Source: an uncultured Clostridia bacterium (lineage in GTDB: Bacteria > Bacillota > Clostridia > Oscillospirales > Oscillospiraceae). Taken from it: a stretch of 44,492 nucleotides of DNA. The stretch lies in the NCBI GenBank assembly GCA_947306975.1, contig CAMZHU010000001.1, forward strand, positions 1 through 44,492, in the 5' to 3' direction. Every line of letters starts with the position of its first letter. Position 1 is the first letter of the stretch. Below are positions 13,709-30,915 of the stretch, in pieces. The translations under genes and the position numbers were made by a program. A model generated the notes under the pieces. The model saw nothing but the letters and a program-made list of their open reading frames with translations, was not told the DNA's origin and did no database searches.

Positions 13709-15286
13709 TCACTTCATCCCGAGCCGCTCTTTCGCAATAGCGCGCAGACGGCGTCTGTCGACCTTTCCGGTCGCATTCAGTGGCAGCCGGTCAAAGAACA
13801 GTACATATCGCGGGACCTTATAGGCGCTCAAGCGCCCGCGTACTATAGATTGGACATCTTCCGCATCCATTTCAGTGCCCTCGTTCAGGACGACACATGC
13901 GCACGCTTCCTCCATATAGTGCGTGTCAGGTACATCGATGATCTTGACACGGGCAATACGGCTGTCGGAGAGAAGCAGGTTTTCTATCTCCTCGGGAGAT
14001 ATGTTTTCACCTCCGCGTATGATGAGGTCCTTTATCCTGCCGCGGTAATAGAGATTCCCCTGCGGATCCGCCTTCGCCAGATCACCGGTACGTATCCATC
14101 CGTCAGCGCTCTTTACCCGAGCCGTCTCAGCCGGCATTTTGTAGTATCCGATCATACCGTTGAACCCTCGGAAGTATATCTCCCCCACGATCCCGGGCGG
14201 CACCGGGTTTCCGCCGCGTGATCTCACTGAGACCTCGACCATCGGAAATGCCCTGCCCAGGCTCTCGCTGCGCAGTTCAAGACTGTCGTTAACTGAACCG
14301 CAGGTTATGCCTCCTGTAGCCTCGGTCTGGCCGAGCGAAGGCAAGAGCGTATAACCGAGTTCATCACAGATCCGGCGGAAGAACTCGGGCGGATATGAAG
14401 ATCCGCCGATAAGTCCGGTGCGCAGAGAAGAAATGTCCGCGTTCATCTCCTTCTGCCTTCGGAGCAGTGCTGAGAAAAGTGTAGGAACGGCGTTCAAAAC
14501 GGTACATTTCTCACGCTCGATCATCTCCAGGATGATGTCAGTCCGCCTCCCTGCCGGGAAGCAGAGACATGCGCCTGCCGCCAGCGCCGCAAGAGCGGTA
14601 CCGGTAATCGAAAAGCAATGGAAAAGCGGCAGTACCGAACAAAACCGGTCGTTCTCGTCAGCATCCAGGCCGGCGGCCTGCGCAAATATGGTGTTGACTC
14701 TCGCAAAATGCGTTGTGATCACAGGACGTGCGCTGCCGGTAGAGCCTGATGAAAACAGTATCGTATCAGGATCGTCTTCCGTTACGGAACTCTCTGCCTC
14801 TTCGAGCTCCGCGGGCGCTGCCATAGGCAGATCGAACAGATACCGATACTTGTATCCCGGTTCCTGCTGAAGAGTAAATATCCTGTCAGCGTCGGGCTGT
14901 TCCAGTGAAACGCACAGTTCCGGAAAAACATTCTCCCTGAACTCGTGGTCGATCACCATGTAACCGACATCGGCAGATCTCACGCAGCCGCGAAGCTCCT
15001 CCACGCCGAACGCAGTGCAGATAGGTACGACGACCGCACCGATCCGCCAGAGCGCATAGAAGCATATAAGTGTCTCAGGCGCGTCGTTCGCAAGAACGCC
15101 TACGTGTACGCCCTTGCGTATACCTGCTGCAAGAAAACGCCTCGCGTACTGACCGCTTGTCTCAAGAAGCTCGCTGTAGGTAAGTCTCAGCGTATCGGAA
15201 ACAACAGCTTCCCGTTCCGGAAAACGCTGCGTCTGCATATGAAGCACCTGTCCTATTGATTTGTGAAAGAGTTTAGGCGCCGTCAT
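13709..15286 (-). CDS. AMP-forming acyl-CoA synthetase (class I adenylate-forming enzyme)
   Basis: Motifs LFSSGSTGSARPV, LGQTEATG, GWIRTGDLA, GRIKDLIIRGGENISPEEIE and NATGKVDRRRL. I prefer the ATG at 15286 (MTAPKLFHKS, GGAAAGG upstream). The ORF track extends it to 15340. Confidence 0.85.
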   Translation of the reverse strand: MTAPKLFHKSIGQVLHMQTQRFPEREAVVSDTLRLTYSELLETSGQYARRFLAAGIRKGVHVGVLANDAPETLICFYALWRIGAVVVPICTAFGVEELRGCVRSADVGYMVIDHEFRENVFPELCVSLEQPDADRIFTLQQEPGYKYRYLFDLPMAAPAELEEAESSVTEDDPDTILFSSGSTGSARPVITTHFARVNTIFAQAAGLDADENDRFCSVLPLFHCFSITGTALAALAAGACLCFPAGRRTDIILEMIEREKCTVLNAVPTLFSALLRRQKEMNADISSLRTGLIGGSSYPPEFFRRICDELGYTLLPSLGQTEATGGITCGSVNDSLELRSESLGRAFPMVEVSVRSRGGNPVPPGIVGEIYFRGFNGMIGYYKMPAETARVKSADGWIRTGDLAKADPQGNLYYRGRIKDLIIRGGENISPEEIENLLLSDSRIARVKIIDVPDTHYMEEACACVVLNEGTEMDAEDVQSIVRGRLSAYKVPRYVLFFDRLPLNATGKVDRRRLRAIAKERLGMK

Positions 15287-15468
15287 GACTGTCTGCCTTT
15301 CCAGTCCGCGGTAATGCTGCGGACAAATAAACGGACCCATCCGAGAGAGTTACTTCTAAAGTCACTCCCGTCAGCAGGATCCTCCACGAAAAGAACACAT
15401 CCGATACCGCGGTTTTTTATGTCCGCGGCGGGCGGAGACGTTCCCCCGCCCGCTCAGCGGACCGTTCT

Positions 15469-17094
15469 TTATTTATCGATATACGCTCCGAGGCCGCCCC
15501 ACTTTTCGTGGAAGATGCCCTCGTCCATCGTCTTGAGTTCGGGAGAGATCACAGGCTCAAATCCGATCCTGTCAAGAACATCCTTCTGGAGGTCTATGCC
15601 GGGCGCTATCTCAACAAGGGTCATCTTATGATCTATGAGACGGAAAACTGCGCGCTCAGTGACATAGAGGACTTCCTGATCCTCCGGAGTGTACTGGCCG
15701 GCAAACGTGATCTGACCGACTTTCTCCACAAACTTCTGTATCGTGCCTTCCTCGACTATCTCAAGCTTGCCGTCGCCGACTTTCAGTTTTGCCTTGCCCA
15801 TGAGCGTGCCGGCAAAAATGACTTTCGGGGTAGCGCGGGTGATATCGATGAATCCGCCGGGGCCGGTAAGCCTCTTGCCCATACGGCTGACGTTGTTGTT
15901 GCCGTCGCCGTCGGCTTCGCCGATGCCCAGGCATGTCAGGCTGAGGCCGCCGCCGCTTATAAGATCGAACATCTCGTTCTGTGTGATAATGGCCTCGGGA
16001 TTGTATGCGCTGCCGAAGCTCGGAAGCGCGGATGGTACGCCGCCCACCATTCCGCTCTCGGTGCTCATGACGACGTCATTGATGAAGCCTTCCTCCGCGA
16101 CGACCTTTGCCACGTCAGCCGGCATGCCGACGCCGAGGTTCACGAGGTCGCCTTTCTTGAGCTCCATCGCGACGCGGCGGCAGATGACCTTTCTCTCGTC
16201 AAACGGCAGCGGCTCGATGCTGTCGAGCGGGATGCGGATATGTCCAGAGTAAGAGGGCTCCCAGTATGTTCCCTCTGCCTGCCAGCACGATTTGGGATCC
16301 TTCGCCACTACGACGTAGTCGACGAGCACTCCGGGTATCTTTATATCCTTGGGATTGAGGGTCTCTTTCTTCGCGACGTATTCGACCTGTACTATAACGA
16401 TGCCTCCGCTGTTCTTGACCGCGGTCGCGACGGAGAAGCCCTCGTTAATAACGCTCTCATGAGCAAAAGAGATATTGCCGTTCTCATCGGCTATGGTACC
16501 TCTCAGGAGAGCAACGTCAGCCTTGAAAGAAGGATAGAACAGATACTCTTCGCCGTTGAACTCGACGAGTTTTACCAGTTCGTCCTTGGCGCATGCATTC
16601 ATACGGCCGCCTTCTACGCGCGGATCGACGAAAGTTCCGAGGCCCGTCTTCGTTATAAGTCCGGGACGGCCCGCGGCGATCTCACGCCAGAGATTGATGA
16701 TCACGCCCTGCGGGAGACAGTATGACTCGACCTGTTCCTTGCGTGCCAGGTCGCACATGGCGAATGCGCTGCCTATATGTGCGCTTGTCCATTTCGTCAC
16801 GAGGCCGGGTCCGGCTTCGCCGAAGCGGGATACGCCGCGGACGCCGTGATCGTTGTCGGGCTCTGGAAGTCTTGAACGCTCCCATCCGTCAAACTGGTTG
16901 CCATAGCCCCAGTCGCCCATGGCGCTGCCCTGCTTGAGGTTGAGATTGCACGGATGTCCGGTCTCGCGGAAGTTGTCTCTTATCGCGCAGGCAAGCTCTT
17001 CAGCCCAGCCTGAAAGGCCCATTCCGGCAAGACCAACTGTCGCTCCGTCCGGAATGAGGGCAGCCGCTTCTCTTGCTGTAATGAATTTTGCCAT
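15469..17094 (-). CDS. Acyl-CoA:carboxylate CoA-transferase, propionate CoA-transferase (Pct) family
   Basis: 541 aa, colinear by eye with C. propionicum Pct (GLITKTGLGTFVDPR, NSGGIVIVQVE, VLVDYVVV, TESGMVGGVP containing the catalytic Glu, GGFIDIT). Confidence 0.85.
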   Translation of the reverse strand: MAKFITAREAAALIPDGATVGLAGMGLSGWAEELACAIRDNFRETGHPCNLNLKQGSAMGDWGYGNQFDGWERSRLPEPDNDHGVRGVSRFGEAGPGLVTKWTSAHIGSAFAMCDLARKEQVESYCLPQGVIINLWREIAAGRPGLITKTGLGTFVDPRVEGGRMNACAKDELVKLVEFNGEEYLFYPSFKADVALLRGTIADENGNISFAHESVINEGFSVATAVKNSGGIVIVQVEYVAKKETLNPKDIKIPGVLVDYVVVAKDPKSCWQAEGTYWEPSYSGHIRIPLDSIEPLPFDERKVICRRVAMELKKGDLVNLGVGMPADVAKVVAEEGFINDVVMSTESGMVGGVPSALPSFGSAYNPEAIITQNEMFDLISGGGLSLTCLGIGEADGDGNNNVSRMGKRLTGPGGFIDITRATPKVIFAGTLMGKAKLKVGDGKLEIVEEGTIQKFVEKVGQITFAGQYTPEDQEVLYVTERAVFRLIDHKMTLVEIAPGIDLQKDVLDRIGFEPVISPELKTMDEGIFHEKWGGLGAYIDK

Positions 17095-17196
17095 ATGATT
17101 TCCTCCTTTGCCGCGTGGGGCGCGGTAATTCTACAACGGAGAAGACACCGTATAACAGGCGCCTTCTCCGTTCATGTTCACTCTATTAACCTGCGA

Positions 17197-17841
17197 TCAG
17201 GCCTTGCCGGTGAGTATCTCGGCAGCCTTATTGGCGCACGCAGCGGCGTCCTCGGTGTAATAGTCTGCACCGACTTCGTCGCAGAAGGCCTGTGTAACAG
17301 GCGCGCCGCCGATCATTATCGTAACTTTGTCGCGGATACCGGCATCCTTGATAGCCTCGATGACTTCGCCGATAGCCGGCATGGTGGTCGTAAGAAGAGC
17401 CGAGCAGAGCACGAGATCGCACTTCTCATTGATAGCGGTCTCAACGAACTTCTCCTTCGGAACGTCGACGCCGATGTCGATGACTTCGATATTCTTGCTC
17501 TCGACCATGAGACGGACCAGGTTCTTGCCGATATCGTGCAGGTCGCCTGCAACGGTTCCAAGAACGGCCTTGCCGATAGGCTCGTTGCCTTCAGCGTTAA
17601 GCATCGGCTTGATGAGAGCTGTACCTGTGTTCATGGCGCGCGCCGCTACGAGCACCTCAGGCACGAAAGCTTCATTACGGGTAAAACGGTCGCCCACGAT
17701 GCCCATTCCGTGGAGCAGTCCGTCATTCAGGATCTCCTGTGCGCTGCAGCCTTCCTCGATGGCCTTCGGCACGAGTTCCTTTATCAGCTTAGCTTTGCCT
17801 TTCTCTACTGCTGCGGAGATTTCTTCGATTGTAGTAGACAT
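17197..17841 (-). CDS. Methyltransferase-cognate corrinoid protein (MtaC/MtbC/OdmA type: B12-binding cap + Rossmann domain)
   Basis: 214 aa with GDLHDIGKN (DxHxxG), SALLTTT and IMIGGAPV. The N-terminal helical cap domain contains FVPEVLVAARAM. Confidence 0.9.
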   Translation of the reverse strand: MSTTIEEISAAVEKGKAKLIKELVPKAIEEGCSAQEILNDGLLHGMGIVGDRFTRNEAFVPEVLVAARAMNTGTALIKPMLNAEGNEPIGKAVLGTVAGDLHDIGKNLVRLMVESKNIEVIDIGVDVPKEKFVETAINEKCDLVLCSALLTTTMPAIGEVIEAIKDAGIRDKVTIMIGGAPVTQAFCDEVGADYYTEDAAACANKAAEILTGKA

Positions 17842-17978: not shown

Positions 17979-20015
17979 TTACAGGAGTTTCCCCCTGGCG
18001 CAGGCTGTCACGTCAGCGCCTATACGCGCAAGCCCGAAATCGGTGTCAAAGTCCTTTTTCTTGACCTCTACGGTCACGGTCACTTCACCCTTTGCGCCGC
18101 AGCGTTCAGCTTTCTTTGCTGCCCGCTCCTTAGCGATAACGGTAGCACGCCTGATCGCCATATCCAGATCGTCGAAAGCTTCTCTGTTTTCTCCGGATAT
18201 GAAGAAAATACCGTCATTCTCATCCGCTTTGGGCGTGATATAGTCGGCCTTAATATGCACGGTCTCGTACACGCATACGTTTCCGAGCACAGCGCCCAGT
18301 GCATTGGATACTCCTGAGTATTCAGAAACCCGCCATTCGGTATGAAGGGCTCTGGCCACATCGGGCAGGAATATATGTATAGGCGCGCCTGCGCCGAGAA
18401 GAACAGCGTCCGTTGAGAAGGTGTTCCTGAAAAAGCGCGTTTTCTCTTCGGATATCTCCTCTGCAAACGCCTGTTTGGCAAGTGTTTCTAGTTCCTTTGG
18501 CGCATAAGGCGACCGCTCCGTACCGTATGCGTCGCTCCAAAGCATCCTTACTATCTTACAGTACAGTTTTTCCTTAATCTGCCTGTATACCTCGTCGATA
18601 ATCCACTCCTGCTCCCTGCCGGTGGATCTGCTTATGAAACCAAGCGCAAGGCTCGCTGCGCGCTCGGCTGATCCGGATATCAGCTTTCCGTAGGCTCCGC
18701 ACGTCATATCACGAGCGTCGCCCCTGAGTATAAAAGCGTCTGTCGGCGTAAAACCGCAGCGCAGCACAGCTCCCAACTGTTCAAGACGTTCCGTACGCAC
18801 ACTGTATCTGTTAGTACCGATAGCACGCGCAAGCTGCAGCACGCTTTTCGGCCCTTCCCTCAGCGCTTCGCAGATCCTTCGGTCATCCTCTGAAAAACGT
18901 CTGTCTCCGTCGTCTATCTCTTTAAGCAGCAAGAAATGCTCGTAGAGAGCGACGGAACAGCCGTCATACCATTCCTCGGTGCTCTCAAGCTCCGGGAGCA
19001 CCTCCGGAAAACGGCTGGCAAGTATCGATACCGGCATGACGCGCCTGCTGTCGAGCGAAATTGAACGCCGGCTGTACCAAACGCGGCTGTCTCCGCCCAG
19101 GGCAAGAGTCTCGATGCTCACCCCGCGTACGAAGGTCTGCCATCCGGCCAGGCGTATCCCGTTCGCGTCGATCTTAGGACTGCCGTTTTTGATGATCGCC
19201 ATATCGCTCGTCGTGCCGCCCATGTCGATCACGACCGCCTGGCGTTCGCCGAAAAGTTCACCCGCTCCTTTAACGCTCGCAGTAGGCCCGCATACGAGGG
19301 TCTCTACAGGATAGCTGAGCGTGTATTCCTCGCTCACGAGTGAGCCGTCGCTCCGCATTATAAGTATCGGAAGGTTTATACCATCCTCTTCGAGGACGGC
19401 ATGGATGGCATCGAAAAACTCGGCTATGACCTTCGACATGCGCGCGTTCAGCAGCGCGCCTGCGCCGCGTTTTATAACGTTTACTTCCCTGAATATCTCA
19501 TATGAACACGTCACCGGGATGTCGGAAAAAGCAGCTATGCGCTCTGCGGCCTGCCGCTCGTAGAGCCCGTCGTTGGTCCTCGCACCGATCTGAGCCACTG
19601 CGATACCGTCGTAGTGCTTTGTGATGCTCGGCAGCATCCCGTCGAGCGCGGCCCAATCCGGTTCGATCCCCTTATCGGGATCTCCGTCGATAAAGCGCAT
19701 GAATTCCATGCCCTCAAAACCGTATGAGGACAGCGTCCACTCAACGGCAGCCTTGCTGGCGCCTATAAAGAGGAGGCAGATGTTCTCGCCTTTCTTTTCC
19801 ACGCAGGCGTTCGTGGCCAAAGTCGTCGATAACGAGATATATGAAGCCCCGTCTATAAGATCTCTCGGGAGCTGACGCAGGACCTCCCGTATTCCGATCT
19901 CAAGATCCTCATGGGTGGTCATCGCCTTCGCGTATGTCAGTATCCTGTGGTCTTCAAGGTCGTAGACGACAGCATCAGTCGAAGTGCTGCCTGTGTCTAT
20001 GCCGATTGCCGTCAT
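17979..20015 (-). CDS. Hydantoinase/oxoprolinase A (HyuA)-like ASKHA ATPase, solitary (no HyuB partner)
   Basis: 678 aa. ASKHA phosphate motifs IGIDTGSTSTDAV and VVIDMGGTTSDMA are present, and the length and architecture match HyuA-type subunits. There is no Cys cluster. The start lies 14 nt after the folC stop. Confidence 0.7.
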   Translation of the reverse strand: MTAIGIDTGSTSTDAVVYDLEDHRILTYAKAMTTHEDLEIGIREVLRQLPRDLIDGASYISLSTTLATNACVEKKGENICLLFIGASKAAVEWTLSSYGFEGMEFMRFIDGDPDKGIEPDWAALDGMLPSITKHYDGIAVAQIGARTNDGLYERQAAERIAAFSDIPVTCSYEIFREVNVIKRGAGALLNARMSKVIAEFFDAIHAVLEEDGINLPILIMRSDGSLVSEEYTLSYPVETLVCGPTASVKGAGELFGERQAVVIDMGGTTSDMAIIKNGSPKIDANGIRLAGWQTFVRGVSIETLALGGDSRVWYSRRSISLDSRRVMPVSILASRFPEVLPELESTEEWYDGCSVALYEHFLLLKEIDDGDRRFSEDDRRICEALREGPKSVLQLARAIGTNRYSVRTERLEQLGAVLRCGFTPTDAFILRGDARDMTCGAYGKLISGSAERAASLALGFISRSTGREQEWIIDEVYRQIKEKLYCKIVRMLWSDAYGTERSPYAPKELETLAKQAFAEEISEEKTRFFRNTFSTDAVLLGAGAPIHIFLPDVARALHTEWRVSEYSGVSNALGAVLGNVCVYETVHIKADYITPKADENDGIFFISGENREAFDDLDMAIRRATVIAKERAAKKAERCGAKGEVTVTVEVKKKDFDTDFGLARIGADVTACARGKLL

Positions 20016-20029
20016 TTGGTGCGCTCTCC

Positions 20030-21865
20030 TTATACTTGGTCATCAAACCTGTATACAGTCTCTTCTGTTACAACAGTTCCCGGCTTCACATCAGTGATCT
20101 CGCATGATGTCCTGTCGAGGTGCTGGGCCTCGAACGCCACACATACCGTCACTGCAGACGGGCATCTGACAAGGTAACGGTCATAGTATCCGCATCCGTG
20201 GCCGAGCCGGCCTCCGAAACCGTCGAATCCGACGCAAGGGACTATAACGGCGTCTATCTCTTCCGGAGGGATCAAATCGGAGCGTTCCTTCATCGGAGAC
20301 TTTATCCCGTACGCGCCCGTCACCCAGGCGTTCTCGTCACGAGGGATCATCGCTTCCATTTCTCCCCCGTCGCCGGTAACCGGATAGGCTATCCTTGCCC
20401 CGTTCCGGGCCGCATACCTGTCGAATCCGCCAACGTCCGCCTCTCCGCGGACCGCACAGTACGAGAGGATGGTCCTTGCCCCCTTGAGTTCCGGCATTTC
20501 CTCAAGCCTTTCACATATGCGTGCGCTGTACTCGCTGCGCTGTTCTTCTGTAAGCGCCAGACGGGCCGCGCTGCAGTTTTTTCTCTGCAGCTTTTTCAGC
20601 TTTCCCGGAAAAACGCTGCGCACGTGACCGGCCATATAAAGTGAGCCGAATGAGACGACCGGCACGCCGGTCTCCCCTGCCAGTTCGAGCGCTCTCTCTA
20701 CGCCGTCTTCTATGCTCTCGCAAGCTTCTGCCTCTGCTCCCCGTGATACTAGATACTTCGCAAGGTCGCCGCTTATGAGCCTGCGGGGACTGTCAGGGGT
20801 AACGCATACGAATCTGTCTGCGTAAGGCAGCATCAGGGACATTATGGTCTCATAATCCTTGTCCGCCAGAACGCCTGTGAGAAATATGACTTTTTTATCC
20901 GGCAGGAGCATGTCGAGGCTCTTCGTCAATGCCTCCGCGCACTGCGGGTTGTGTCCGCCGTCCAGGATAAACAGCGGATCACGGCTCAGCACTTCCATAC
21001 GCGCCGGCCACTGGACAGTGCGAAGTCCTTCATCAACAGCCATCTCGGGTATATCCCAGCCACGGTCACGCAGCGCCTCAGTTCCGGTCAGCACCAGTGC
21101 AGCGTTATGAAGCTGGTGCGGTCCCAAAAGAGAAAGCGAATACTCTCTGCCGTCCCATCTGAAACGCTGTCCGTCAAGGGTGTACCCAAGCGGCTCGAGC
21201 CGCGAGAAATCTACGCAGTACAGCGGGACTTCCATATCGGCGCAAACGCTTTTTACGACTTCGGTCACTTCGGGAGCCCCGTCGTAGCATACGCATGAAC
21301 AGCCGTTCTTGATGATCCCGGCTTTTGTGGAGGCGATCTCTTCTAGCGTGTTGCCGAGGTATTCGGTGTGCTCCAGACCAATATTCGTTATTACGGCAAG
21401 TTCAGGCGCGTCTATCGCGTTGGTCGAATCAAGTGCTCCGCCCATGCCAACCTCAAGGACGACGGCGTCGCAGTGTTCTTCACAGAAATACTGCATGGCT
21501 ATGGCCGTAACAAGTTCAAACTGACTGGGGTGATCCTCCATATGTTCGGCGATATTCATGACGCGCTCCGTAAGCTCCGCCAGCCTTCCGCCCGGTATAT
21601 CCCTGCCGTCTATCCTGATCCTCTCATTGAAGACCTGGATATACGGGGATGTATAGAGTCCGGTCCTGTAACCGGCCGCTCGAAGGATGGCGTCGAACAT
21701 GGCGCAGGAACTGCCTTTCCCGTTGCTCCCGGCAACGTGGATAAACTTCAACCTCTTCTGGGGATCCCCCAGCTGCGCAAGCAGTTCCTTTGTCCGTCCC
21801 AGCCCTAGACGGGTCGTGCTCCAGCCGTAATTCTCTATATAGGAAATCGCTTCCTGCTCAGTCAT
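20030..21865 (-). CDS. folC: Folylpolyglutamate synthase/dihydrofolate synthase fused to 5-formyltetrahydrofolate cyclo-ligase
   Basis: The N-terminal ~425 aa are FolC/Mur-ligase like (HVAGSNGKGS, ITNIGLEHTEYLG, DGGHNP). The C-terminal ~180 aa are MTHFS like (ILSYCAVRGEAD..., VPCVGFDGFGGRLGHGCGYYDRYL). The start overlaps the folT stop (ATGA). Confidence 0.85.
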   Translation of the reverse strand: MTEQEAISYIENYGWSTTRLGLGRTKELLAQLGDPQKRLKFIHVAGSNGKGSSCAMFDAILRAAGYRTGLYTSPYIQVFNERIRIDGRDIPGGRLAELTERVMNIAEHMEDHPSQFELVTAIAMQYFCEEHCDAVVLEVGMGGALDSTNAIDAPELAVITNIGLEHTEYLGNTLEEIASTKAGIIKNGCSCVCYDGAPEVTEVVKSVCADMEVPLYCVDFSRLEPLGYTLDGQRFRWDGREYSLSLLGPHQLHNAALVLTGTEALRDRGWDIPEMAVDEGLRTVQWPARMEVLSRDPLFILDGGHNPQCAEALTKSLDMLLPDKKVIFLTGVLADKDYETIMSLMLPYADRFVCVTPDSPRRLISGDLAKYLVSRGAEAEACESIEDGVERALELAGETGVPVVSFGSLYMAGHVRSVFPGKLKKLQRKNCSAARLALTEEQRSEYSARICERLEEMPELKGARTILSYCAVRGEADVGGFDRYAARNGARIAYPVTGDGGEMEAMIPRDENAWVTGAYGIKSPMKERSDLIPPEEIDAVIVPCVGFDGFGGRLGHGCGYYDRYLVRCPSAVTVCVAFEAQHLDRTSCEITDVKPGTVVTEETVYRFDDQV

Positions 21866-22377: not shown

Positions 22378-22380
22378 AGA

Positions 22381-22616: not shown

Positions 22617-23471
22617 TTACTTCGCCGCGCGTTTTGCGGCCTCGATAACATGCGAGACCAGCACGCTCGTAGTTACGTTGCCTACACCGCCGGGGACCGG
22701 GGTGATACTGGCAACTATGGGCTCTGCTTCTTCAAATTTAACGTCGCCGCAGAGCTTCTGTTTCTCCTCGTTCCATCCTATGCCGACATCGATCACTATC
22801 TGACCTTCGCGGAGATGCTCCGCCCCGATGCTCTCCATCTGGCCGGATGCTGCCACGACGATATCTGCGCCGCGTGTCTCAGCGGGGACATCCTTCGTTC
22901 GGGTATGGCAGATGGTTATCGTAGCGTTCTCATGCATGAGCATCATGGCTACGGGTCTGCCGATAACGAGCGATCTGCCGACTATCGTGACTCTCTTGCC
23001 CTTGGGGTCGATGCCGTAATAGTGCAGGATCTCCATCGCAGCCTGCGCAGTGCAGGGAGGGAATCCGCTGACCGTATTCGTGAACACGCCGGCGAGCGAG
23101 CCGTCCGTGCACCCGTCTACATCCTTCTCCGGGGCAAGGAGTTTGCGCGCCTTCTCGCCGTCAAGCTGTTTCGGGAGCGGCCGGAACATGAGTATGCCGT
23201 GCACGGAATCGTCCTTGTTCAGATCATCGAGCGTCTTGAAAAAAGTATCGCTGTCGACGTCGGCGGGAAGCACGACGTTCTTGACCTCCACGCCGACCTG
23301 GCCGCAGCGTTTCATAGCGCCGCGCTCATAACTCAGGTCGTCGTCGCGCTCTCCGACGCGGAGAATAGCCAGCGTCGGGATGACGCCGTTTTCTTTCAGC
23401 GCCGCGGCGTCGGCGGCCATCTTCTCATTAAGCGCGGCCGCTACCGGTGCGCCTTTCAGTAACTCTGCCAT
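22617..23471 (-). CDS. folD: Bifunctional 5,10-methylene-THF dehydrogenase / 5,10-methenyl-THF cyclohydrolase
   Basis: MAELLKGAPVAAAL..., GKRVTIVGRSLVIGRPVAMML, PVPGGVG. The ATG at 23471 overlaps the fchA stop (TGATG). The ORF track starts at a TTG at 23477. Confidence 0.9.
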   Translation of the reverse strand: MAELLKGAPVAAALNEKMAADAAALKENGVIPTLAILRVGERDDDLSYERGAMKRCGQVGVEVKNVVLPADVDSDTFFKTLDDLNKDDSVHGILMFRPLPKQLDGEKARKLLAPEKDVDGCTDGSLAGVFTNTVSGFPPCTAQAAMEILHYYGIDPKGKRVTIVGRSLVIGRPVAMMLMHENATITICHTRTKDVPAETRGADIVVAASGQMESIGAEHLREGQIVIDVGIGWNEEKQKLCGDVKFEEAEPIVASITPVPGGVGNVTTSVLVSHVIEAAKRAAK

Positions 23472-24088
23472 CAGCAAAACTCCCTGTATATCTCTTCGTA
23501 CGTCTCTTTCGCGATCGGCAGATACTTGCCCATCTGCCTGTCGACGTGAGCGTCGATCTTCGCCGCGTAATCGCGGTCCTTCATGGATTTCGTGTTTACC
23601 TTTACGTTGATTGCCGCGCCGCAGATCGCGCCGTAGCAGATTATTGCGCCGGTCGCTGCGTCGGAGAGGATGATCTTGCTTCCCTTTTTGCCGAACTCAC
23701 GGAGGACCTCGACGGCCTCACAGCAGAGGTCGAGCATTTCTACCGGGACAGCGGCTCCGTCCCTGAGGCACTTCTCCATTACTTCGTCGCGGGTGGGGTC
23801 ATCTTTCGGTATGCCGTATGCGCGGCTCAGAGGTTCGAACGCCGCAGCGTCCTTTTCTATGCATTCGAGGAGCTTAACGCGAAGATCCTGCGCTCTCGCC
23901 ATGAGAGCTTTTATTTCCTCTTCAACGTCGGCGTATTTTTTCTTGCCGACGGTAAACTCGCCGACCATATCTCCGAGCGCGACGCCGATCGCACCGACAA
24001 GAGCGCTTGCTCCGCCGCCGCCCGGTACGGACGACTTGGAGGCCAGCTGCTCGGTAAAACTGGTTACGCTGGATTCAAGAAGGTTCAT
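23471..24088 (-). CDS. fchA: Cyclodeaminase/cyclohydrolase-family protein (methenyl-THF cyclohydrolase type)
   Basis: 205 aa, all helical. The N-terminus FTEQLASKSSVPGGGGASALVGAIGVALGDMV is the hallmark of the formiminotransferase-cyclodeaminase C-domain / FchA family. Confidence 0.8.
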   Translation of the reverse strand: MNLLESSVTSFTEQLASKSSVPGGGGASALVGAIGVALGDMVGEFTVGKKKYADVEEEIKALMARAQDLRVKLLECIEKDAAAFEPLSRAYGIPKDDPTRDEVMEKCLRDGAAVPVEMLDLCCEAVEVLREFGKKGSKIILSDAATGAIICYGAICGAAINVKVNTKSMKDRDYAAKIDAHVDRQMGKYLPIAKETYEEIYREFC

Positions 24089-24172: not shown

Positions 24173-25171
24173 TCAGGCTCTGGCCTTTTTGATCTCTTCG
24201 GTGAGGACCGGAAGCACCTCGAAGAGGTTGCCGACGATACCGTAGTCCGCTACGTCAAAAATGGGAGCGTCGGGATCCTTGTTGATGGCGATTATGACAT
24301 CGCTGGAAGTCATACCGGCAAGATGCTGGATAGCGCCGGAGATGCCGCATGCGATGTAGAGCTTGGGACCGACGATCTTGCCGGTCTGGCCGACCTGATG
24401 CGCATGGGATATCCAGCCCGCATCGACAGCGGCGCGGGAAGCGCCGACGGTCGCACCGAGGACCTCCGCCAGCTCACGGATGGGTTCAAACCCTTCCGGT
24501 CCGCCGACGCCGCGGCCGCCGGATACGATTATATCCGCGCCTTCGAGGTCAACGTTCTCGCCGCCCATGTCCTTGATGACTTCGAGCACCTGCGTACGGA
24601 TAACGTCCGCAGCTGCGATCTCTTCCTTGATGATCTCGGCTTTCGCCTCGCCGGGTTCGCCCTTTTTGAAGGCGCCGGGACGGATGCTGCCTATCTGGGG
24701 CCTCTGCTCCGGGCAGGAGAGGACTTCCATGATGCTGCCGCCGTAGGCGGGGCGGGTCCACTCGATACTGCCGTCATCGCAGACGCCGAGAGCAGTGCAG
24801 TCGGACGCAAGGCCGGTCTTCAGACGGCATGCGACTACAGGAGCAAGTTCGCGTCCGTCGGGGGTGGCTCCGAGGAGGATAGTCGCCGGGCCGTATTTCT
24901 CGGCAAGCGACGCCAGGGCCTTGGCAAAAGCTTCAACGGTGAATTCCTTGTATTCCGGGCCGTCAACAACGATGACTTTATCAGCGCCGTACTCAGAGGC
25001 CGCCTTTACAGCCGCGTCGGCTCCGCAGCCGATCACGACGGCGACGAGAGCGCCGCCCTGCTTTCCGGCAAGCTCCTTGCCGGGTGTCAGCATCTCTATG
25101 CCGACGTTCTTCGCGGTGCCGTCCTCGTTAGTTTCTATAAATACCCACAGGTCTTTGGTCTTGGCTTCCAT
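24173..25171 (-). CDS. etfA: Electron transfer flavoprotein alpha subunit
   Basis: 332 aa with a C-terminal FAD domain ([43 protein letters not shown]). There is no N-terminal ferredoxin domain. Confidence 0.9.
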
Positions 25172-25190
25172 TTCTGTGTACCCCCTTCCC

Positions 25191-25994
25191 TCAGATAACG
25201 CGAGCGTCGCTCAGGAGAGCGAACAGCTTCTTCGCTGAATTCTCGTCGCTGTCTTCCTGTATCTTGATGCCGCTCTTGGATCTCTGCGGGACATAGGTCT
25301 TGATGACCTTTGTGGGAGATCCGGCAGCGCCAACTGCGGAAGCGTCGAGGCCGGCAAGATCGGCGCCGGTCAGTGTCGGGATCTGGGCGCGGTTTGCAGC
25401 CATCTTGCGCTTGATGGTGGGATAACGAGGATCCCATGAAGGCTTCGTGAATGTCACGAGGCAGGGGGTCTTCACGGCAACGACCTTAACGCCGCCGTCG
25501 ATCTCCTTGTTGACCTTGAGCGTCTCGCCCTCGTCAAAGGCCTCGAGGCCGTAGGTGACGAGAGGATAACCGAGATACTCGGCGAGCTGGGGGCCGACCT
25601 GGGCGGAATCGCCGTCGGTCGCCTGCTTGCCGCAGAATATGGCGTCGAACTTGCCCTCGGTCTCTTCGATCTTTTTAACTGCGCAGCAGAGGATATAAGC
25701 GGTAGCGAGAGTGTCGGAACCGTCAAAGGCGTCGTCGGAGATGAAATACGCTTTGTCCGCGGCGATGGCAAGACCTTCCTTAAGCGCCTTCTCCACGCCT
25801 GCGGCGCCGATGGTCACGAGAACAATCTTGGTATCGGGATCCTTGTCCTTGATGCGGGCAGCCGCCTCGAGTGCATAGCTGTCGAACGGGTTGATGATCT
25901 TCGGTACCTCGTCGGTGTTGAGGGTGTTTTTTGCGGGATCGGCTTTGAGCTCGGCCGGATCCGGAACCTGCTTGATGCAGACTAATATGTTCAT
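25191..25994 (-). CDS. etfB: Electron transfer flavoprotein beta subunit (bifurcating-type signature)
   Basis: MNILVCIKQVPD..., NPFDSYALEAA, CGKQATDGDSAQVGPQLAE. The last motif resembles, from recall, the A. fermentans EtfB motif GRQAIDGDTAQVGPEIAE. Confidence 0.9.
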   Translation of the reverse strand: MNILVCIKQVPDPAELKADPAKNTLNTDEVPKIINPFDSYALEAAARIKDKDPDTKIVLVTIGAAGVEKALKEGLAIAADKAYFISDDAFDGSDTLATAYILCCAVKKIEETEGKFDAIFCGKQATDGDSAQVGPQLAEYLGYPLVTYGLEAFDEGETLKVNKEIDGGVKVVAVKTPCLVTFTKPSWDPRYPTIKRKMAANRAQIPTLTGADLAGLDASAVGAAGSPTKVIKTYVPQRSKSGIKIQEDSDENSAKKLFALLSDARVI

Positions 25995-26117: not shown

Positions 26118-26909
26118 TCATTTCCAGATCTCGCCGATGAGCGGATACTGGGTCTTGTAGCCGATGAGCGAGAGATAGAAACCGCACTGCGGATAATTCT
26201 TAACAAGCTCCTTCAGCGTTTCGATACCGTCGTAATTCGTGTCTGTCGGGATCTCGTAGCCGACTACGTCGGAGAGGAGATATGCCTTTTTGGACATCCA
26301 AGCCTCTGCGATCGTGGGGACCTCGGGATACTTGGCGAGCAACTGGTCAAAGACCTCGTTTTTGCCGAGTATCGGCTGGGTGATGATGAAGGTCGCGCCG
26401 GCGGCAAGCTTGCGCTCCATCTTTGCGAATTCAGCCTCGGGCGGCTCGTAGGGGTTGAATGCGACGCCGAGAACGAAATCGGGATAATTTGCTTTGATAT
26501 ACTTGCAGAGCTCGACGCTGGTGACAGTCACGCAATCGATGCCGATGTCCTTGGGCTCAAGCCTGGACATATCGGGAGCGCCGTCGCCGCTGACGACGAG
26601 GATGTACTTGATGCCGAGGTTCTGAGCGGTCGTGAGTATCTCGTCCAGATTGGCCTTGGAGTGGAAGGTGTTGAGGTGGAGCATGACCTGGTCGGGGTTT
26701 ACAGGCAGCTCGAGCTCGGAGATCATCTCAGTGCCCTGGAATGCCTTGCGGCCCATGGCGTTGTCGGTGAGGCAGATGCAGTATCCGTCTTCCATGACGC
26801 GGGTATACTTCTCAGCGAACTTCTCAAGATCGCCTTCGATGTCTTCGGTGTTCTGCTTCGGGGGGATTATCTCGATGTGATAGCGCTTGTCAAGAATATG
26901 ATTCTTCAT
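26118..26909 (-). CDS. Divergent short methylenetetrahydrofolate reductase (MetF/MTHFR)-like protein
   Basis: 263 aa. Colinear blocks against E. coli MetF: IEIIPP (FEFFPP, Glu kept), ICLTDNA (VSVTYGA), LHLNT (PHLTC), IKYILVVSGD (IRHIVALRGD, Asp kept), VAFNPYEPPEAE (VAAYPEVHPEA), AAGATFIITQP (DAGANRAITQF, Gln kept). No metV-like gene is nearby. Confidence 0.65.
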   Translation of the reverse strand: MKNHILDKRYHIEIIPPKQNTEDIEGDLEKFAEKYTRVMEDGYCICLTDNAMGRKAFQGTEMISELELPVNPDQVMLHLNTFHSKANLDEILTTAQNLGIKYILVVSGDGAPDMSRLEPKDIGIDCVTVTSVELCKYIKANYPDFVLGVAFNPYEPPEAEFAKMERKLAAGATFIITQPILGKNEVFDQLLAKYPEVPTIAEAWMSKKAYLLSDVVGYEIPTDTNYDGIETLKELVKNYPQCGFYLSLIGYKTQYPLIGEIWK

Positions 26910-26954
26910 ACTGTATGTACACTCCTTAATATAGTGGGATGTTGTATATAAGGC

Positions 26955-28631
26955 TTAGAACAGGCCGCTGATAACGCCGTTCTCGTCAACGTCGATCTTC
27001 TCCGCAGCGGGTACCTTCGGCAGACCGGGCATCGTCATGATATCGCCTGTAAGAGCGACTATGAAACCTGCGCCAGCGCTGACCTTCAGGTTGCGGACAG
27101 CGATCCTGAAACCGGAAGGAGCTCCGAGCTTGGTCGGATCGTCGGAGAAGCTGTACTGGGTCTTGGCCATGCAGATGGGCATCTTGTCGTAGCCGAGCTC
27201 TTCGATCTCCTTGAGCTGCTTTACGGCATTGCCGACGAGATCTGCGCCGTCGGCGTGATAGACCTTGGTAGCGATTGCGTTGAGCTTGTCCATAACGGAC
27301 ATCTCTACGTCGTAGGACTGTTTGAAGGAGTTGGGCTGCTCGCAGAGGCGGACGACCTCCTCGGCAAGAGCCTTGCCGCCCTCGCCGCCCTTTGCCCAGA
27401 CTTCGGACAGAGCGACGTTGACGCCGAGTTCCTTGCACTTGTCTTCGACGAGTTTGAGCTCGGCAGCGGTGTCGGTCGGGAAAGCGTTAATGGCTACTAC
27501 GCAAGGTAGGCCGAAAACGTTTTTGATGTTGCTGACGTGCTGGAGCAGATTCGGAAGGCCCTTCTCAAGAGCAGCGAGGTTCTCACCGTTGAGCTCAGCC
27601 TTCGGTACGCCGCCGTGATACTTGAGAGCGCGTACTGTAGCGACGATGACGACCGCGGAGGGCGTGAGCCCTGCCATACGGCACTTTATGTCGAAGAACT
27701 TCTCAGCTCCGAGGTCAGCGGCGAAGCCGGCTTCGGTAACGGCGTAGTCGCCGATCTTAAGAGCCATCTTGGTAGCGGTAATGGAGTTGCAGCCGTGAGC
27801 TATGTTCGCGAACGGGCCGCCGTGGATGAGAGCGGGAGTGCCCTCGAGGGTCTGAACGAGGTTGGGCTTGAGAGCGTCCTTAAGGAGCGCTGCCATTGCG
27901 CCTTCGGCCTTGAGGTCGTGAGCCGTGACGGGCTTGCCTGCATAGGTATAGCCGACGATTATGCGGCCGAGGCGGGCCTTGAGGTCTGTTATATCAGAGG
28001 CAAGGCAGAGGACCGCCATGACCTCGCTGGCAACGGTGATCTCGAAACCGTCTTCACGTGGCACGCCCTGCATGCGTCCGCCGAGTCCGTCGACTATGTT
28101 GCGGAGCTGACGGTCGTTCATATCGACAGCGCGCTTCCAAGTAATGCGCTTGACATCGATGCCGAGAGCATTGCCCTGCTGGATGTGGTTGTCCAGCATT
28201 GCCGCAAGCAGGTTGTTGGCTGCGCCGATGGCATGGAAGTCACCGGTGAAATGGAGGTTTATATCCTCCATGGGAACGACCTGGGCGTAGCCGCCGCCGG
28301 CCGCACCGCCCTTGACTCCGAAAACGGGGCCGAGAGAAGGCTCGCGAAGCGCTACTATCGCGTTCTTGCCGATCTTGCGGAGACCGTCAGTCAGACCGAC
28401 GGATGTGGTCGTCTTGCCCTCTCCTGCAGGAGTGGGGGTTATTGCGGTGACAAGGATCAGCTTGCCGTCGGGACGATCGGACATATCCTTGAGGAAAGCA
28501 TAGTCGATCTTCGCCTTGTAGTTGCCGTACTGCTCGAGATACTTCTCGTCGATGCCGGCGGTCTTTGCGATCTCTGTTATTTTCTTTTTATTACAAGCCT
28601 GAGCTATTTCGATATCTGTCTTGATTTCCAT
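26955..28631 (-). CDS. fhs: Formate--tetrahydrofolate ligase
   Basis: 558 aa with [17 protein letters not shown], and FTHFS-like along its whole length. Confidence 0.95.
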
Positions 28632-28655
28632 TTATATATCCTCCAGAATTCCTGC

Positions 28656-29459
28656 TTACTTCTTCTGTACGCCGAACTTGTCGTCGTTGTAGGCCTCCAT
28701 GTACTCCATGCAGTACTCGTCCTCTTCCATGAGGACTTCGGTGGCGTACATAGCGCCGAGCATATCGCGGTTGGTCGGATCCATGATGGCGCTGTCCATG
28801 CCGAGGTAACGGGCGATGGTCAGGAAAGCCATGTTCATGGTCTTGCGGGACGGGATACCGAAGGAGATGTTGGAAAGTCCGCTTGTGATGTGGATGTCAG
28901 GATACGCGTTGCGGATGTACTTCGTTACAGCCGCGAATCCGGTGAATGCCTCGGGCTTGGTGCCCACGCTGAATACCAGCGGGTCGATGTGGAGGCGGGA
29001 CGGAGCTATGTTGTACTCCTTCGCCTTCACCATAAGTCTCTCAAAGATGGAGATACGCTCTTCAACGCCGTCGGGGATCTTGTTGCTGTCGCAGAGAAGC
29101 GCGACGCATTCCCACTTGGTGTCGGCTATGACAGGGAAAACCGTCTCGATCTTGTTGCCCTCGAGAGAAACGGAGTTGATGAGGCCGGGCTTTTTGCAGA
29201 ACGGCATGGCATCGACGATGCTCTGAGCGTTGGGGCTGTCGATGCAGATCTTCGCATCGCTTACTTCCTGTACCAGGTCGATGAGCCACTTCAGCGTCTC
29301 CACGTCCTTGTCGACGACTGACGAGCAGACGTCGATAAAGTCCGCGCCGCCCTCGGTCTGACGGATTGCGAGATCGCGGATCCAGTCCTCGTTCTTCTCT
29401 GCTATTGCCTTTGCTACGGAGGGGATAGCGCCGTTGATTTTTTCGCCGATGATGATCAT
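28656..29459 (-). CDS. Methyl-corrinoid:tetrahydrofolate methyltransferase (pterin-binding DHPS-like barrel, MT-II type)
   Basis: 267 aa. MIIIGEKING, GGADFIDVC, GLINSVSLEG and TSGLSNISFG are the pterin-binding-domain blocks seen in AcsE/MtrH/MetH-type and demethylase MT-II proteins. Confidence 0.8.
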   Translation of the reverse strand: MIIIGEKINGAIPSVAKAIAEKNEDWIRDLAIRQTEGGADFIDVCSSVVDKDVETLKWLIDLVQEVSDAKICIDSPNAQSIVDAMPFCKKPGLINSVSLEGNKIETVFPVIADTKWECVALLCDSNKIPDGVEERISIFERLMVKAKEYNIAPSRLHIDPLVFSVGTKPEAFTGFAAVTKYIRNAYPDIHITSGLSNISFGIPSRKTMNMAFLTIARYLGMDSAIMDPTNRDMLGAMYATEVLMEEDEYCMEYMEAYNDDKFGVQKK

Positions 29460-29592
29460 TTTGGTTTTCTCCTTTCAGTCTTATACGCGGTTCCCTGCTG
29501 CCCCCGGAAAACCGGTCAGGTCCACGGTTATATCTTTATGAACACATTCTAATTATTAAGCGCATGAGTTTCTTGTAAAACTATAATAAAAG

Positions 29593-29620
29593 TTGTAATT
29601 TTATACGATTGTGCTATAAT
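29593..29620 (+). promoter_or_regulatory. Candidate promoter of the PocR-AraC regulator gene (TTGTAA-16-TATAAT), within a 208-nt divergent control region
   Basis: TTGTAAttttatacgattgtgcTATAAT. The opposite strand carries TTTACA-17-ATAATT-like elements for the MT-II operon. Confidence 0.4.
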
Positions 29621-29667
29621 CAAAAACATGAAACAAAGCGCTGCCGCGCTAGTCACGGAGGACCGTC

Positions 29668-30915
29668 ATGGAATCTCATCTTTTCCTGTACTTTCCCAAG
29701 AGAGACCTGGAACTCATTCTGGACGCGCTGCACTCCTGCGTGGGCCTGTACATACAGCTGATCGACGATACCGGTAACCAGCTGCTTGCCTACGGCGAGC
29801 CTGCCTCCTACTGCACACTGGCAGGATCCTGCCTCCCTGACGGCAGTTCCTGCAGAAGCGAACATGTAGAAGCCGCAAAACGCGCCATCGAACTCGGTGA
29901 ACCTTACGTTTTCTGCTGCTCGTCCGGTCTCTACCATATCTCCTACCCCATCGTCAACAGAGAGCGCATGTTCGGTTCCGTCCTGATTGGGCCGTTCCTC
30001 ATGGACGGCACCGACGAGGATCTGATCAAGTACCTTGCCAGTACTACCGAGATACCCACGGACACGGTCCTGGAACTTTACAAGAGCTCTCAATCCATCA
30101 AGGAATTATCTCCCGAAGAAGTAGTCAAGGTGAGCCGGCTCCTCTACTATCTCGTGAACAGTCTCATATCCGGAAGCCGCGAACTCCTGAAGGCAAACAG
30201 GGACAGGCAGCTCCACCAGTCGAAGGTCGGCGAATCCATACGCCGCTACAAACAGCAGGATCCCTCGATTTGGAAAACATATCCTTTCGAGAAAGAGCGC
30301 ATACTTCTTTCCGAAACACGGGCCGGAAATGTCGAAGGAGCCCGCACTGCGTTCGACGAGTATCTCGCTCACCTCGTCCAGTATGAAAAATACGATACTG
30401 AGAATTTGAAATTCAGGCTCATCGAGCTATGCTCTCTCCTGTCCCGGGCTTCGATAGAGCGCGGAGCCGACGAGACCGTCATACTGGAACTCAACAAACA
30501 CCTCATTCAGAACATCCTAAGTTCCTATAACATCAACGAGATAACTTACCGTCTGCACGAGAATCTCGACGTATTCACGGAAAGTCTTTTCTTTACATCT
30601 GACAAAAACAACAAACTCGTAAAACGCGCGACCGAATACGTACATGACCATTCCGCGGAAAAGATCTCTCTTTCGAACGTAGCGAAAACCCTCGGGGTAA
30701 CCTCTCCGTATCTCTCCATGCTCTTCAAACACGTTACCGGTCTCACCTTCCGCGACTACCTGAACAAGGTCCGCGTCGAGGAGGCAAAGCGTCTTCTTAT
30801 AAGCACGGACTATCAGATCATGGAGATAGCAGTCGCATGCGGGTTCAACGACCAGAGCTATTTCACCAAAGTATTCAAAAAATATACCGGCCTTTCGCCG
30901 AGGAGCTTTCGCTGA
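29668..30915 (+). CDS. AraC-family transcriptional regulator with N-terminal PocR sensory domain
   Basis: The N-terminus is PocR-like (LDALHSCVGLYIQLIDDTGNQL...EPYVFCCSSGLYHISYPI...GSVLIGPFLM). The C-terminus carries a double HTH (SLSNVAKTLGVTSPYLSMLFK; IMEIAVACGFNDQSYFTKVFKKYTGLSPRSFR). Confidence 0.85.
   Translation: MESHLFLYFPKRDLELILDALHSCVGLYIQLIDDTGNQLLAYGEPASYCTLAGSCLPDGSSCRSEHVEAAKRAIELGEPYVFCCSSGLYHISYPIVNRERMFGSVLIGPFLMDGTDEDLIKYLASTTEIPTDTVLELYKSSQSIKELSPEEVVKVSRLLYYLVNSLISGSRELLKANRDRQLHQSKVGESIRRYKQQDPSIWKTYPFEKERILLSETRAGNVEGARTAFDEYLAHLVQYEKYDTENLKFRLIELCSLLSRASIERGADETVILELNKHLIQNILSSYNINEITYRLHENLDVFTESLFFTSDKNNKLVKRATEYVHDHSAEKISLSNVAKTLGVTSPYLSMLFKHVTGLTFRDYLNKVRVEEAKRLLISTDYQIMEIAVACGFNDQSYFTKVFKKYTGLSPRSFR

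Follow-up and report, generated by a model that had tools for sequence, protein, structure and literature searches.

A corrinoid/tetrahydrofolate gene cluster of an uncultured Oscillospiraceae bacterium, with a candidate Etf-coupled methylene-tetrahydrofolate reductase and a HyuA-type ATPase

The O-demethylase and methyltransferase systems of anaerobes such as Acetobacterium dehalogenans and Desulfitobacterium hafniense consist of four components: (i) a substrate-specific methyltransferase (MT-I); (ii) a corrinoid protein (CoP); (iii) a methyltetrahydrofolate:corrinoid methyltransferase (MT-II); and (iv) an ATP-dependent reductive activator carrying Fe-S clusters (RACE). The locus described here lies in a stretch of 44,492 nucleotides from an uncultured Clostridia bacterium of the Oscillospiraceae, of gut or rumen origin (assembly GCA_947306975.1, contig CAMZHU010000001.1, positions 1 to 44,492; hereafter, the window) and consists of a minus-strand string of genes for corrinoid and tetrahydrofolate (THF) metabolism, divergent from a regulator with a PocR sensor and an AraC-type DNA-binding domain (PocR-AraC). 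Like the four-component systems, it encodes a CoP with the DxHxxG motif, an MT-II of the pterin-binding type (62% identical to that of a Desulfitobacterium URO-D/CoP/MT-II locus, L048) and a PocR-type regulator; in addition, relatives of its HyuA-type ATPase (the HyuA-like protein) sit inside such operons, as in locus L079, where Pfam domains give the order URO-D, URO-D, CoP, RACo, Pterin_bind, HyuA-like. Unlike these systems, the window has neither MT-I nor RACE, and its MT-II shares an operon with the whole THF-dependent one-carbon (C1) route and with a methylene-THF reductase (MTHFR) homolog (the MetF-like protein) linked to an electron-transferring flavoprotein (Etf), which is the layout of a hub and not of a substrate-specific operon.

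The locus can also be compared with cobalamin-dependent methionine synthase (MetH), its split forms and the YitJ fusion of Firmicutes, given that pterin-binding and B12-binding modules and an MTHFR homolog are found together in the window; as in split MetH, the ortholog locus L131 adds a stand-alone homocysteine (Hcy)-binding domain. Unlike MetH, the window has no Hcy module, no S-adenosylmethionine (SAM)-dependent reactivation domain and no S-box, and its CoP matches the corrinoid proteins of methylamine and betaine systems better than MetH: it is MtgC/MtbC-like, below the equivalog cut-offs (198 bits vs. 132 bits for the metH model of NCBIfam). The MT-II also matches the metH model, with a lower score (88 bits).

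In Bcd-EtfAB, CarCDE and LctBCD, an EtfBA pair of the bifurcating clade works with a dehydrogenase; in this locus, EtfBA that appear to be of that clade are encoded beside a flavoprotein-fold dehydrogenase gene in conserved synteny. Unlike in those complexes, the partner here is the MetF-like protein, and alignment offsets indicate that the window EtfA is devoid of the N-terminal ferredoxin domain of CarE and LctC. The potential of the methyl-/methylene-THF couple is close to that of lactate/pyruvate.

Finally, two known systems resemble the remaining genes. The CoA-transferase (CoAT) and AMP-forming ligase of the window would allow the prime-then-cycle logic of the caffeate loop of A. woodii (carABCDE) or the Pct acrylate pathway, and close CoAT homologs head operons of CoAT, ligase, acyl-CoA dehydrogenase (ACAD) and EtfBA or adjoin genes of the lactoyl-CoA-dehydratase type. 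Unlike those pathways, the window has no CarC/ACAD or dehydratase, its Etf belongs to the MetF-like module and its ligase is not orthologous (30-38% identity to the ligases that accompany CoAT elsewhere). The HyuA-like protein, in turn, shares its fold and both ATP motifs with HyuA of N-methylhydantoinase, 5-oxoprolinase, caprolactamase and the acetone and acetophenone carboxylases; unlike the HyuAB enzymes, it has no HyuB-type partner, and its context is one of corrinoid proteins, URO-D, RACo, DUF2284 and cbi genes.

The modules of the locus

The explanation that we favour, with modest confidence, is that the locus is a composite of modules, namely a methyl-corrinoid/THF hub shared by methyltransferases that, like the activator, are encoded elsewhere, and not one dedicated demethylase operon. 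Four modules can be proposed: (i) the PocR-AraC regulator divergent from MT-II, MetF-like and EtfBA, joined in this lineage by Fhs, FchA and FolD, which would tie methyl-corrinoid, methyl-THF, methylene-THF, formyl-THF and formate together; (ii) a folate supply under a THF riboswitch, with FolT and FolC::MTHFS; (iii) CoP plus the stand-alone HyuA-type ATPase; and (iv) CoAT plus ligase, a presumed acyl-CoA activation pair, set off from CoP by strong stem-loops. The features are as follows:

29668-30915 (+): regulator with PocR sensor and AraC-type helix-turn-helix (HTH); Pfam PocR 90.9 bits plus HTH_18/HTH_AraC; divergent from the operon
28656-29459 (-): MT-II; Pterin_bind 67 bits; NCBIfam PRK07535 326 bits (cut-off 259)
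26955-28631 (-): Fhs, formate-THF ligase; Pfam FTHFS 916 bits, full length
26118-26909 (-): short MetF-like methylene-THF reductase homolog, 263 aa; PF02219 61.8 bits (cut-off 24)
25191-25994 (-): EtfB, probably of the bifurcating-type clade; Pfam ETF
24173-25171 (-): EtfA, probably of the bifurcating-type clade; ETF plus ETF_alpha
23471-24088 (-): FchA, methenyl-THF cyclohydrolase; Pfam FTCD_C 196 bits
22617-23477 (-): FolD, methylene-THF dehydrogenase/cyclohydrolase; THF_DHG_CYH plus C-terminal domain
22493-22589 (-): THF riboswitch; Rfam RF01831 88.3 bits (gathering score 36), full model; directly upstream of folT
21862-22377 (-): FolT, S component of a folate energy-coupling factor (ECF) transporter, ~171 aa; NCBIfam TIGR04518 137 bits
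20030-21865 (-): FolC::MTHFS, FolC fused to 5-formyl-THF cyclo-ligase; TIGR01499 368 bits plus TIGR02727 126 bits
17979-20015 (-): stand-alone HyuA-type ATPase of the ASKHA superfamily; Hydant_A_N plus Hydantoinase_A
17930-17902 (-): sigma-70-like promoter in AT-rich intergenic DNA ahead of the CoP gene; TTTACA-17-TATTAT, 10/12, a consensus match only
17197-17841 (-): CoP, cap plus B12-binding Rossmann domain; PF02607 B12-binding_2 plus PF02310 B12-binding
17135-17173, approximate (-): 15-bp stem-loop without U-tract after the CoP stop codon; found by folding
15469-17094 (-): family-I CoA-transferase of the YdiF/Pct/CarA type; CoA_trans
15421-15462 (-): GC-rich stem-loop without U-tract in the CoAT/ligase spacer; -34.5 kcal/mol, z -3.97
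13709-15340, probable start 15286 (-): AMP-forming acyl-CoA ligase; AMP-binding plus AMP-binding_C
13655-13700 (-): intrinsic terminator at the end of the string; 19-bp stem plus U-run, -38.1 kcal/mol, z -6.5

Profile scans with Pfam and NCBIfam located all 14 genes where a previous, sequence-only reading of this DNA had placed them, and the THF riboswitch, the promoter-like site upstream of CoP and the end terminator were likewise recovered. The route between methyl-corrinoid and formate, which that reading had called complete, is so on paper, judging from gene content. Its single same-strand string was right as regards the minus-strand order, but the last three genes (CoP, CoAT and ligase) are not seamless, since strong stem-loops occupy both spacers. 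As a whole, the string is a new arrangement of parts of known kinds.

The CoP motif reads GDLHDIG in the translation, and the protein is 80% identical to the CoP of L131, 75% to that of L129 and 54-62% to those in URO-D operons. A longer, 230-aa folT reading frame overlaps the THF riboswitch, and public gene calls give 171 aa. Within the riboswitch-led segment (20015-22589), folT and folC share 4 nt, and 14 nt separate the stop codon of folC::MTHFS from the start of the HyuA-like gene; because of this spacing, the latter is probably co-transcribed with the riboswitch-controlled folate genes.

The absence of MT-I and of an Fe-S activator, as had been noted from sequence, was borne out. Among the larger open reading frames (ORFs) of the 44-kb window, Pfam found no MttB, URO-D, MtaB, RACo or Cys-rich protein, no family of an MtvB-type MT-I, and no protein with PF14574, PF17651 or Fer2. 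Searching the window by tblastn with the S-methyl_trans protein of L131, which represents the Hcy-methyltransferase domain (PF02574), gave nothing better than E=1, and a similar tblastn search of the window for DUF2284 was negative. In consequence of these two kinds of search, a hidden MT-I, RACE, Hcy-methyltransferase or DUF2284 protein in the window was rejected. When the HyuA family loci that have methyltransferase parts are considered, MT-II is present in 3/26 and RACE in 9/26; MT-II and RACE are thus usually encoded apart from the MT-I/CoP genes, and, hence, a cluster with no MT-I or RACE is the normal modular layout and does not point to new chemistry. Genes for the methyltransferase and activator that the window lacks probably lie at other places in the genome.

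In the proposed catabolic flow, (i) an MT-I, most likely of the URO-D type, and RACE, both encoded elsewhere, would methylate CoP; (ii) MT-II would move the methyl group from CoP to THF; (iii) MetF-like/EtfBA would oxidise methyl-THF, plausibly in a confurcating reaction that also draws on reduced ferredoxin and forms NADH, in the manner of LctBCD with lactate; and (iv) FolD, FchA and Fhs would yield formate and ATP. The regulator predicted from sequence is real (PocR 90.9 bits plus HTH) and does diverge from the operon. Its orthologs (62-63% identity) are divergent from MT-II in L131, L133 and L134/135, and regulators 38-50% identical to it adjoin URO-D/HyuA-like clusters, which favours a substrate-inducible catabolic role. 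The catabolic direction, i.e., methyl oxidation, is therefore favoured, given this regulator family beside URO-D clusters and the position of MT-II as the first gene of the operon.

The MetF-like and EtfBA core

A core consisting of PocR-AraC divergent from MT-II, MetF-like and EtfBA is conserved in the window, L128, L131 and L134/135, with ortholog identities of 58-86%. The contexts of the MetF-like gene, with its identity to that of the window, are listed below:

Window and L128 (95% in L128): full cluster
L131 (74%): AraC, DUF2284 and S-methyl_trans; PocR-AraC divergent from Pterin_bind, MetF-like, EtfB, EtfA and CoP
L134/135 (70%): PocR-AraC divergent from Pterin_bind, MetF-like, EtfB and EtfA; between queA and tgt
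L130, from a relative of Clostridium thermosuccinogenes (65%): MetF-like, EtfB and EtfA alone; 10001-12825
L132/133 (81%): PocR-AraC divergent from MT-II, fhs, MetF-like, fchA and folD; no etf

The MT-II shares 79-86% identity with the product of the gene that opens the L131 and L133 clusters, and the L131 proteins are orthologous to those of the window at 58-80% identity. In L133, two ORFs (357 and 228 aa; 6732-8503) occupy the position of fhs and only the second matches FTHFS, which is probably due to a frameshift or an assembly error.

The MetF-like family, of about 265 aa, is widespread in Oscillospiraceae and relatives. The PF02219 match covers only residues 9-187, i.e., the N-terminal two thirds of the protein. 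In the AlphaFold2 (AF2) model (mean confidence, pLDDT, of 87.8), the best Foldseek matches are all MTHFRs, namely those of yeast, E. coli, Haemophilus and Thermus, with template-modelling (TM) scores of 0.68-0.73; other structural neighbours are the FAD-free mycobacterial MTHFRs and the 5-methyl-THF-binding protein 3ijd.

As for its neighbours, the top five Protein Data Bank (PDB) matches of EtfB are all bifurcating (4kpu, 6fah, 7koe, 5ol2 and 7qh2; 157-190 bits vs. 95-100 bits for non-bifurcating Etfs), while EtfA scores 316 bits against CarE, 227-297 bits against 7koe, 4kpu, 5ol2 and 7qh2, and 165-185 bits against non-bifurcating ones. By sequence, then, EtfBA appear to fall with the bifurcating Etfs. 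Their identity is 58-64% to the MetF-linked Etf of L131 (EtfA, 64%) vs. 37-44% to ACAD-linked Etfs (EtfA, 41-44%), and the MetF-like gene lies directly upstream of etfBA in the window and L128, L131, L134/135 and L130. In L130, the triad MetF-like, EtfB and EtfA is isolated, with no MT-II or CoP, in a relative of a non-acetogen; the pairing of MetF-like with Etf does not, therefore, depend on methyl transfer by corrinoids.

With which partner MTHFR exchanges electrons has long been debated in anaerobic C1 bioenergetics. An EtfAB-coupled MTHFR has been proposed for acetogens, where no genomic support for it was found (PMC8515935), and a catalogue of 12 bifurcating enzymes does not include the MetF-like–Etf combination (PMC6085437); the literature searched gave no account of a MetF-Etf enzyme. 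The MetF-like–EtfBA module is a candidate for an Etf-coupled MTHFR and appears to be under-described. A MetF-like gene fixed beside etfBA of an apparently bifurcating type, and usually MT-II too, in several lineages offers a concrete three-protein target; if true, an Etf-coupled methylene-THF reductase would solve the energetic barrier of methyl oxidation in non-acetogenic Oscillospiraceae.

The HyuA-type ATPase family

The surroundings of the HyuA-like family, which is widespread with thousands of homologs, were studied through a profile scan with one genome per species (80 loci), followed by clustering of the neighbouring ORFs. A part of a corrinoid methyltransferase system lies within 300 bp of the HyuA-like gene in 13/80 loci, within 3 kb in 24/80 and within 10 kb in 26/80. 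These parts are URO-D (21 loci), CoP (11), RACo (9), PocR-AraC (7) and MT-II (3). For instance, a homolog 62% identical to that of the window has a URO-D gene divergent from it, and L129 (homolog 64% identical) has the order RACo, DUF2284, CoP, AraC, HyuA-like.

On this genomic basis, the family appears to be a stand-alone accessory of corrinoid methyltransferase systems. It would load or maintain CoP in an ATP-dependent way, alongside RACE and not replacing it. The sequence-only reading had offered the HyuA-like protein as a candidate for the MT-I or activator role; the family often shares operons with both MT-I and RACE, RACo (10 loci) and URO-D methyltransferases occurring in the same loci, and therefore accompanies them and replaces neither.

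The AF2 model (pLDDT 87.9) matches full-length HyuA-type subunits with TM scores of 0.54-0.62 in Foldseek, namely those of acetone and acetophenone carboxylases, N-methylhydantoinase and caprolactamase. Both ATP motifs, DxGxT and DxGGTTxD, are invariant across 58 homologs, and no Cys cluster is present in the protein. Two identifications were rejected: (i) a divergent RACo, with which there is only generic ASKHA overlap (TM 0.18, vs. ~0.6 to HyuA-type subunits); and (ii) MecG of the mec cassette, which is a DUF protein paired with the RACo-like MecH and is not HyuA-like. A hydantoinase gene in the glycine-betaine-induced methyltransferase cluster of strain DCMF has been mentioned, with no explanation (PMC9768040), and this was the only mention of HyuA-like proteins in corrinoid clusters that the literature searched gave.

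Several observations concern the cofactor and further accessories. In L005/L006 (10001-12016), a 53%-identical homolog closes a cobalamin-biosynthesis operon (cbiC-D-…-cbiA) with no methyltransferase nearby, a position that hints at a cofactor-level, not substrate-level, role. In L129, a cobalamin riboswitch (5562-5762; 100 bits) lies directly 3' of the HyuA-like gene, ahead of an unannotated ORF. Also, RACo, CoP, HyuA-like and, in L131, the Hcy-methyltransferase domain are repeatedly accompanied by a DUF2284 protein rich in Cys (L131, 6315-6860; L129, 1433-1972; L039, 2547-3056; L011, about 15961-16461), which may be a further accessory of corrinoid-protein activation.

Going one step further, the MT-II–MetF-like–EtfBA core may be the long-postulated bifurcating or confurcating Etf-coupled methylene-THF reductase, and the HyuA-type ATPases a new class of ATP-dependent corrinoid-protein maintenance factor. 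This joint proposal is tentative and, taken as a whole, somewhat doubtful. The putative reductase would oxidise methyl-THF with NAD+ while co-oxidising reduced ferredoxin, or run in reverse. Genes of the HyuA-type family keep company with those for corrinoid methyltransferases, RACE, DUF2284 and cobamide biosynthesis; such a role would extend the textbook four-part scheme. What is new in this locus is the MetF-like–EtfBA module, together with the HyuA-type family of accessories.

Competing explanations and neighbouring genes

The CoAT aligns over its full length with E. coli YdiF (2ahu; 386 bits), including the region of the ExG active-site glutamate: its TESG aligns with VETG of YdiF, whose glutamate we take to be the catalytic one. 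It is an ordinary enzyme of the YdiF/Pct/CarA type. Relative to YdiF, it has an insertion of ~21 residues (protein residues about 59-79). Homologs at least 80% identical occur across Lachnospiraceae, Blautia and other Clostridia, an unusual conservation across families in view of the 40-65% identity of the other proteins of the locus. The ligase reached no NCBIfam equivalog, and its best PDB match, a feruloyl-CoA/fatty-acyl-CoA synthetase, is too weak (206 bits) for its substrate to be named from it. The GC content and third-position GC (GC3) of both genes are unremarkable and give no sign of recent transfer.

The neighbourhoods of CoAT were compared in 34 metagenome loci and two Blautia loci. 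At other loci, it is accompanied by ACAD, in some cases along with EtfBA and ligase (L092/93, L101 and L107-118), or, in L104, by 2-hydroxyacyl-CoA (HGD) dehydratase subunits and a PucR regulator. No CoP is found near CoAT in the ~28 non-conspecific loci. The CoP-CoAT adjacency is restricted to conspecific contigs and L128, one close relative whose proteins are 86% (HyuA-like), 96% (CoP) and 97% (CoAT fragment) identical to those of the window. The 97-nt segment between CoP and CoAT folds at -36 kcal/mol (z -3.35), and L128 has a stem at the same place after CoP, with another central sequence, the pairing kept and no U-tract; in L131, CoP is the last gene and a canonical terminator follows at the equivalent position. 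Because of these neighbourhoods, the low identity of the ligases and the L131 terminator, CoAT and ligase look like a lineage-specific, late addition downstream of CoP. The idea that EtfBA are a remnant of a Car-like operon with CoAT was rejected, since their identities place them with MetF-like.

This bears on the central claim of the sequence-only reading, according to which CoP is wired to CoAT and ligase in a new demethylase variant: the methyl donor or its product would be handled as a CoA thioester (primed by the ligase, cycled by CoAT), or an unrecognised protein, such as HyuA-like, would act as MT-I or activator. We consider it very improbable. In its favour, CoP, CoAT and ligase all point the same way and no canonical terminator separates them, L128 keeps the CoP-CoAT adjacency and the 44 kb are devoid of MT-I and RACE genes; the CoAT is of the CarA/Pct type and, in Blautia, heads a CoAT-ligase-ACAD-EtfBA operon resembling carABCDE of the caffeate pathway (PMC466959), so that a substrate-level link to methoxylated phenylpropanoids is conceivable, and the best solved relative of the ligase is feruloyl-CoA synthetase, though at 206 bits only. 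But the CoP-CoAT pair is no conserved partnership outside this species and L128; the window ligase is a distant relative of those that accompany CoAT; the larger ORFs of the window include, by Pfam, no ACAD or dehydratase to use the thioester; and strong hairpins flank CoAT on both sides, the ancestral position of CoP being the end of the operon. For HyuA-like as MT-I or activator, the operons that hold both, the HyuA-type fold and the lack of a Cys cluster argue to the contrary. CoA-thioester-linked demethylation is thus not supported by the CoAT contexts, the hairpins and the L131 terminator, and it should not be carried forward without new evidence. Roughly as improbable is that the HyuA-like protein is not a CoP accessory but a substrate-preparing enzyme, opening N-methylated lactams or hydantoins at the expense of ATP to feed methyltransferases, or a GlmL-like reactivase of a nearby fused glutamate-mutase-like protein. 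Its relatives do include ATP-dependent lactamases and carboxylases, its N-terminus gives a weak GlmL/MutL match and, in the same species, there is a fused GlmE-GlmS gene at a distance of 7 kb; however, no HyuB-type catalytic partner exists in the window or as a conserved neighbour in 80-87 family loci, no mutase homolog is found in any of the 80 family loci, and its association with diverse URO-D paralogs, RACo and DUF2284, like its place closing a cbi operon, speaks for a role toward a cofactor or carrier more than toward a single substrate.

An anabolic reading, which seems to us unlikely, has to be weighed as well: MT-II, CoP and MetF-like/EtfBA would be a cobalamin-dependent methionine synthase in split form that makes its own methyl-THF. 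Formate would pass via Fhs, FchA, FolD and MetF-like/Etf to methyl-THF, MT-II would carry the methyl group to CoP, and homocysteine would then be methylated by an Hcy-binding methyltransferase whose gene lies elsewhere; with flux toward the corrinoid, MT-I is not required. The strongest point is L131 (CoP 80%, MT-II 79%, MetF-like 74%), which adjoins DUF2284 and a 280-aa S-methyl_trans protein with a GGCCGT zinc motif whose best NCBIfam match is the Hcy-methyltransferase half of the YitJ Hcy-methyltransferase/MTHFR fusion; together, the L131 genes would make up all three MetH modules plus MetF. Also consistent with it are the MetF-like and EtfBA genes standing alone in the non-acetogenic relative of C. 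thermosuccinogenes, the L134/135 core among housekeeping genes (queA and tgt on either side), and the folate uptake, FolC and THF riboswitch of the window, which fit general C1 homeostasis. Nevertheless, the window has no S-methyl_trans gene and only 1/135 loci has one; neither a SAM element nor a T-box came to light in the window or L131, and the PocR-AraC family is known beside URO-D clusters; the CoP is MtgC/MtbC-like, not MetH-like; and a whole C1 pathway behind MT-II would be more in keeping with a point of entry than with a small side branch of biosynthesis. Against the modular, catabolic explanation that we prefer, some points count all the same. The closest ortholog cluster, L131, adjoins an Hcy-methyltransferase domain protein and not a URO-D gene, which speaks for the anabolic direction; L128 retains the CoP-CoAT adjacency and no U-tract terminator separates the two genes, so that their co-transcription and a functional link are possible; the MetF-like contexts come from five independent lineages only, with L132/133 lacking etf; we infer both the MetF-like–Etf coupling and the HyuA-like activity; and the scan behind the placement of MT-I and RACE elsewhere, which we also infer, covered the 44-kb window. 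In either direction, the locus suggests for gut and rumen ecology that Oscillospiraceae can turn methyl groups into formate, or use formate for methionine, via a compact regulated hub.

Around the cluster, other genes are worth describing. Beyond the end of the string, a transporter of the major facilitator superfamily (MFS), of the L-lactate/oxalate-formate type (7832-9103, +), precedes a 642-aa fusion (9267-11195, +) of a GlmE-like domain (TIGR01503, 370 bits, just below cut-off) and a GlmS-like B12-binding domain (PRK02261, 171 bits). The fusion has no GlmL or methylaspartase gene nearby and adjoins the cluster in all conspecific contigs; judging from its domains, either a glutamate mutase in fused form or another adenosylcobalamin mutase is conceivable. 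Just beyond the PocR regulator lie a PutP-like Na+/solute symporter (32879-34348, +; 514.6 bits vs. a cut-off of 515.5) and an EamA carboxylate/amine transporter (31067-32008, -), both possible uptake or export partners. At the ligase end of the string, a tRNA-Leu(TAA) gene (13460-13547, +) with its own terminator (13555-13593, +) is convergent with the ligase terminator, forming a back-to-back terminator pair.

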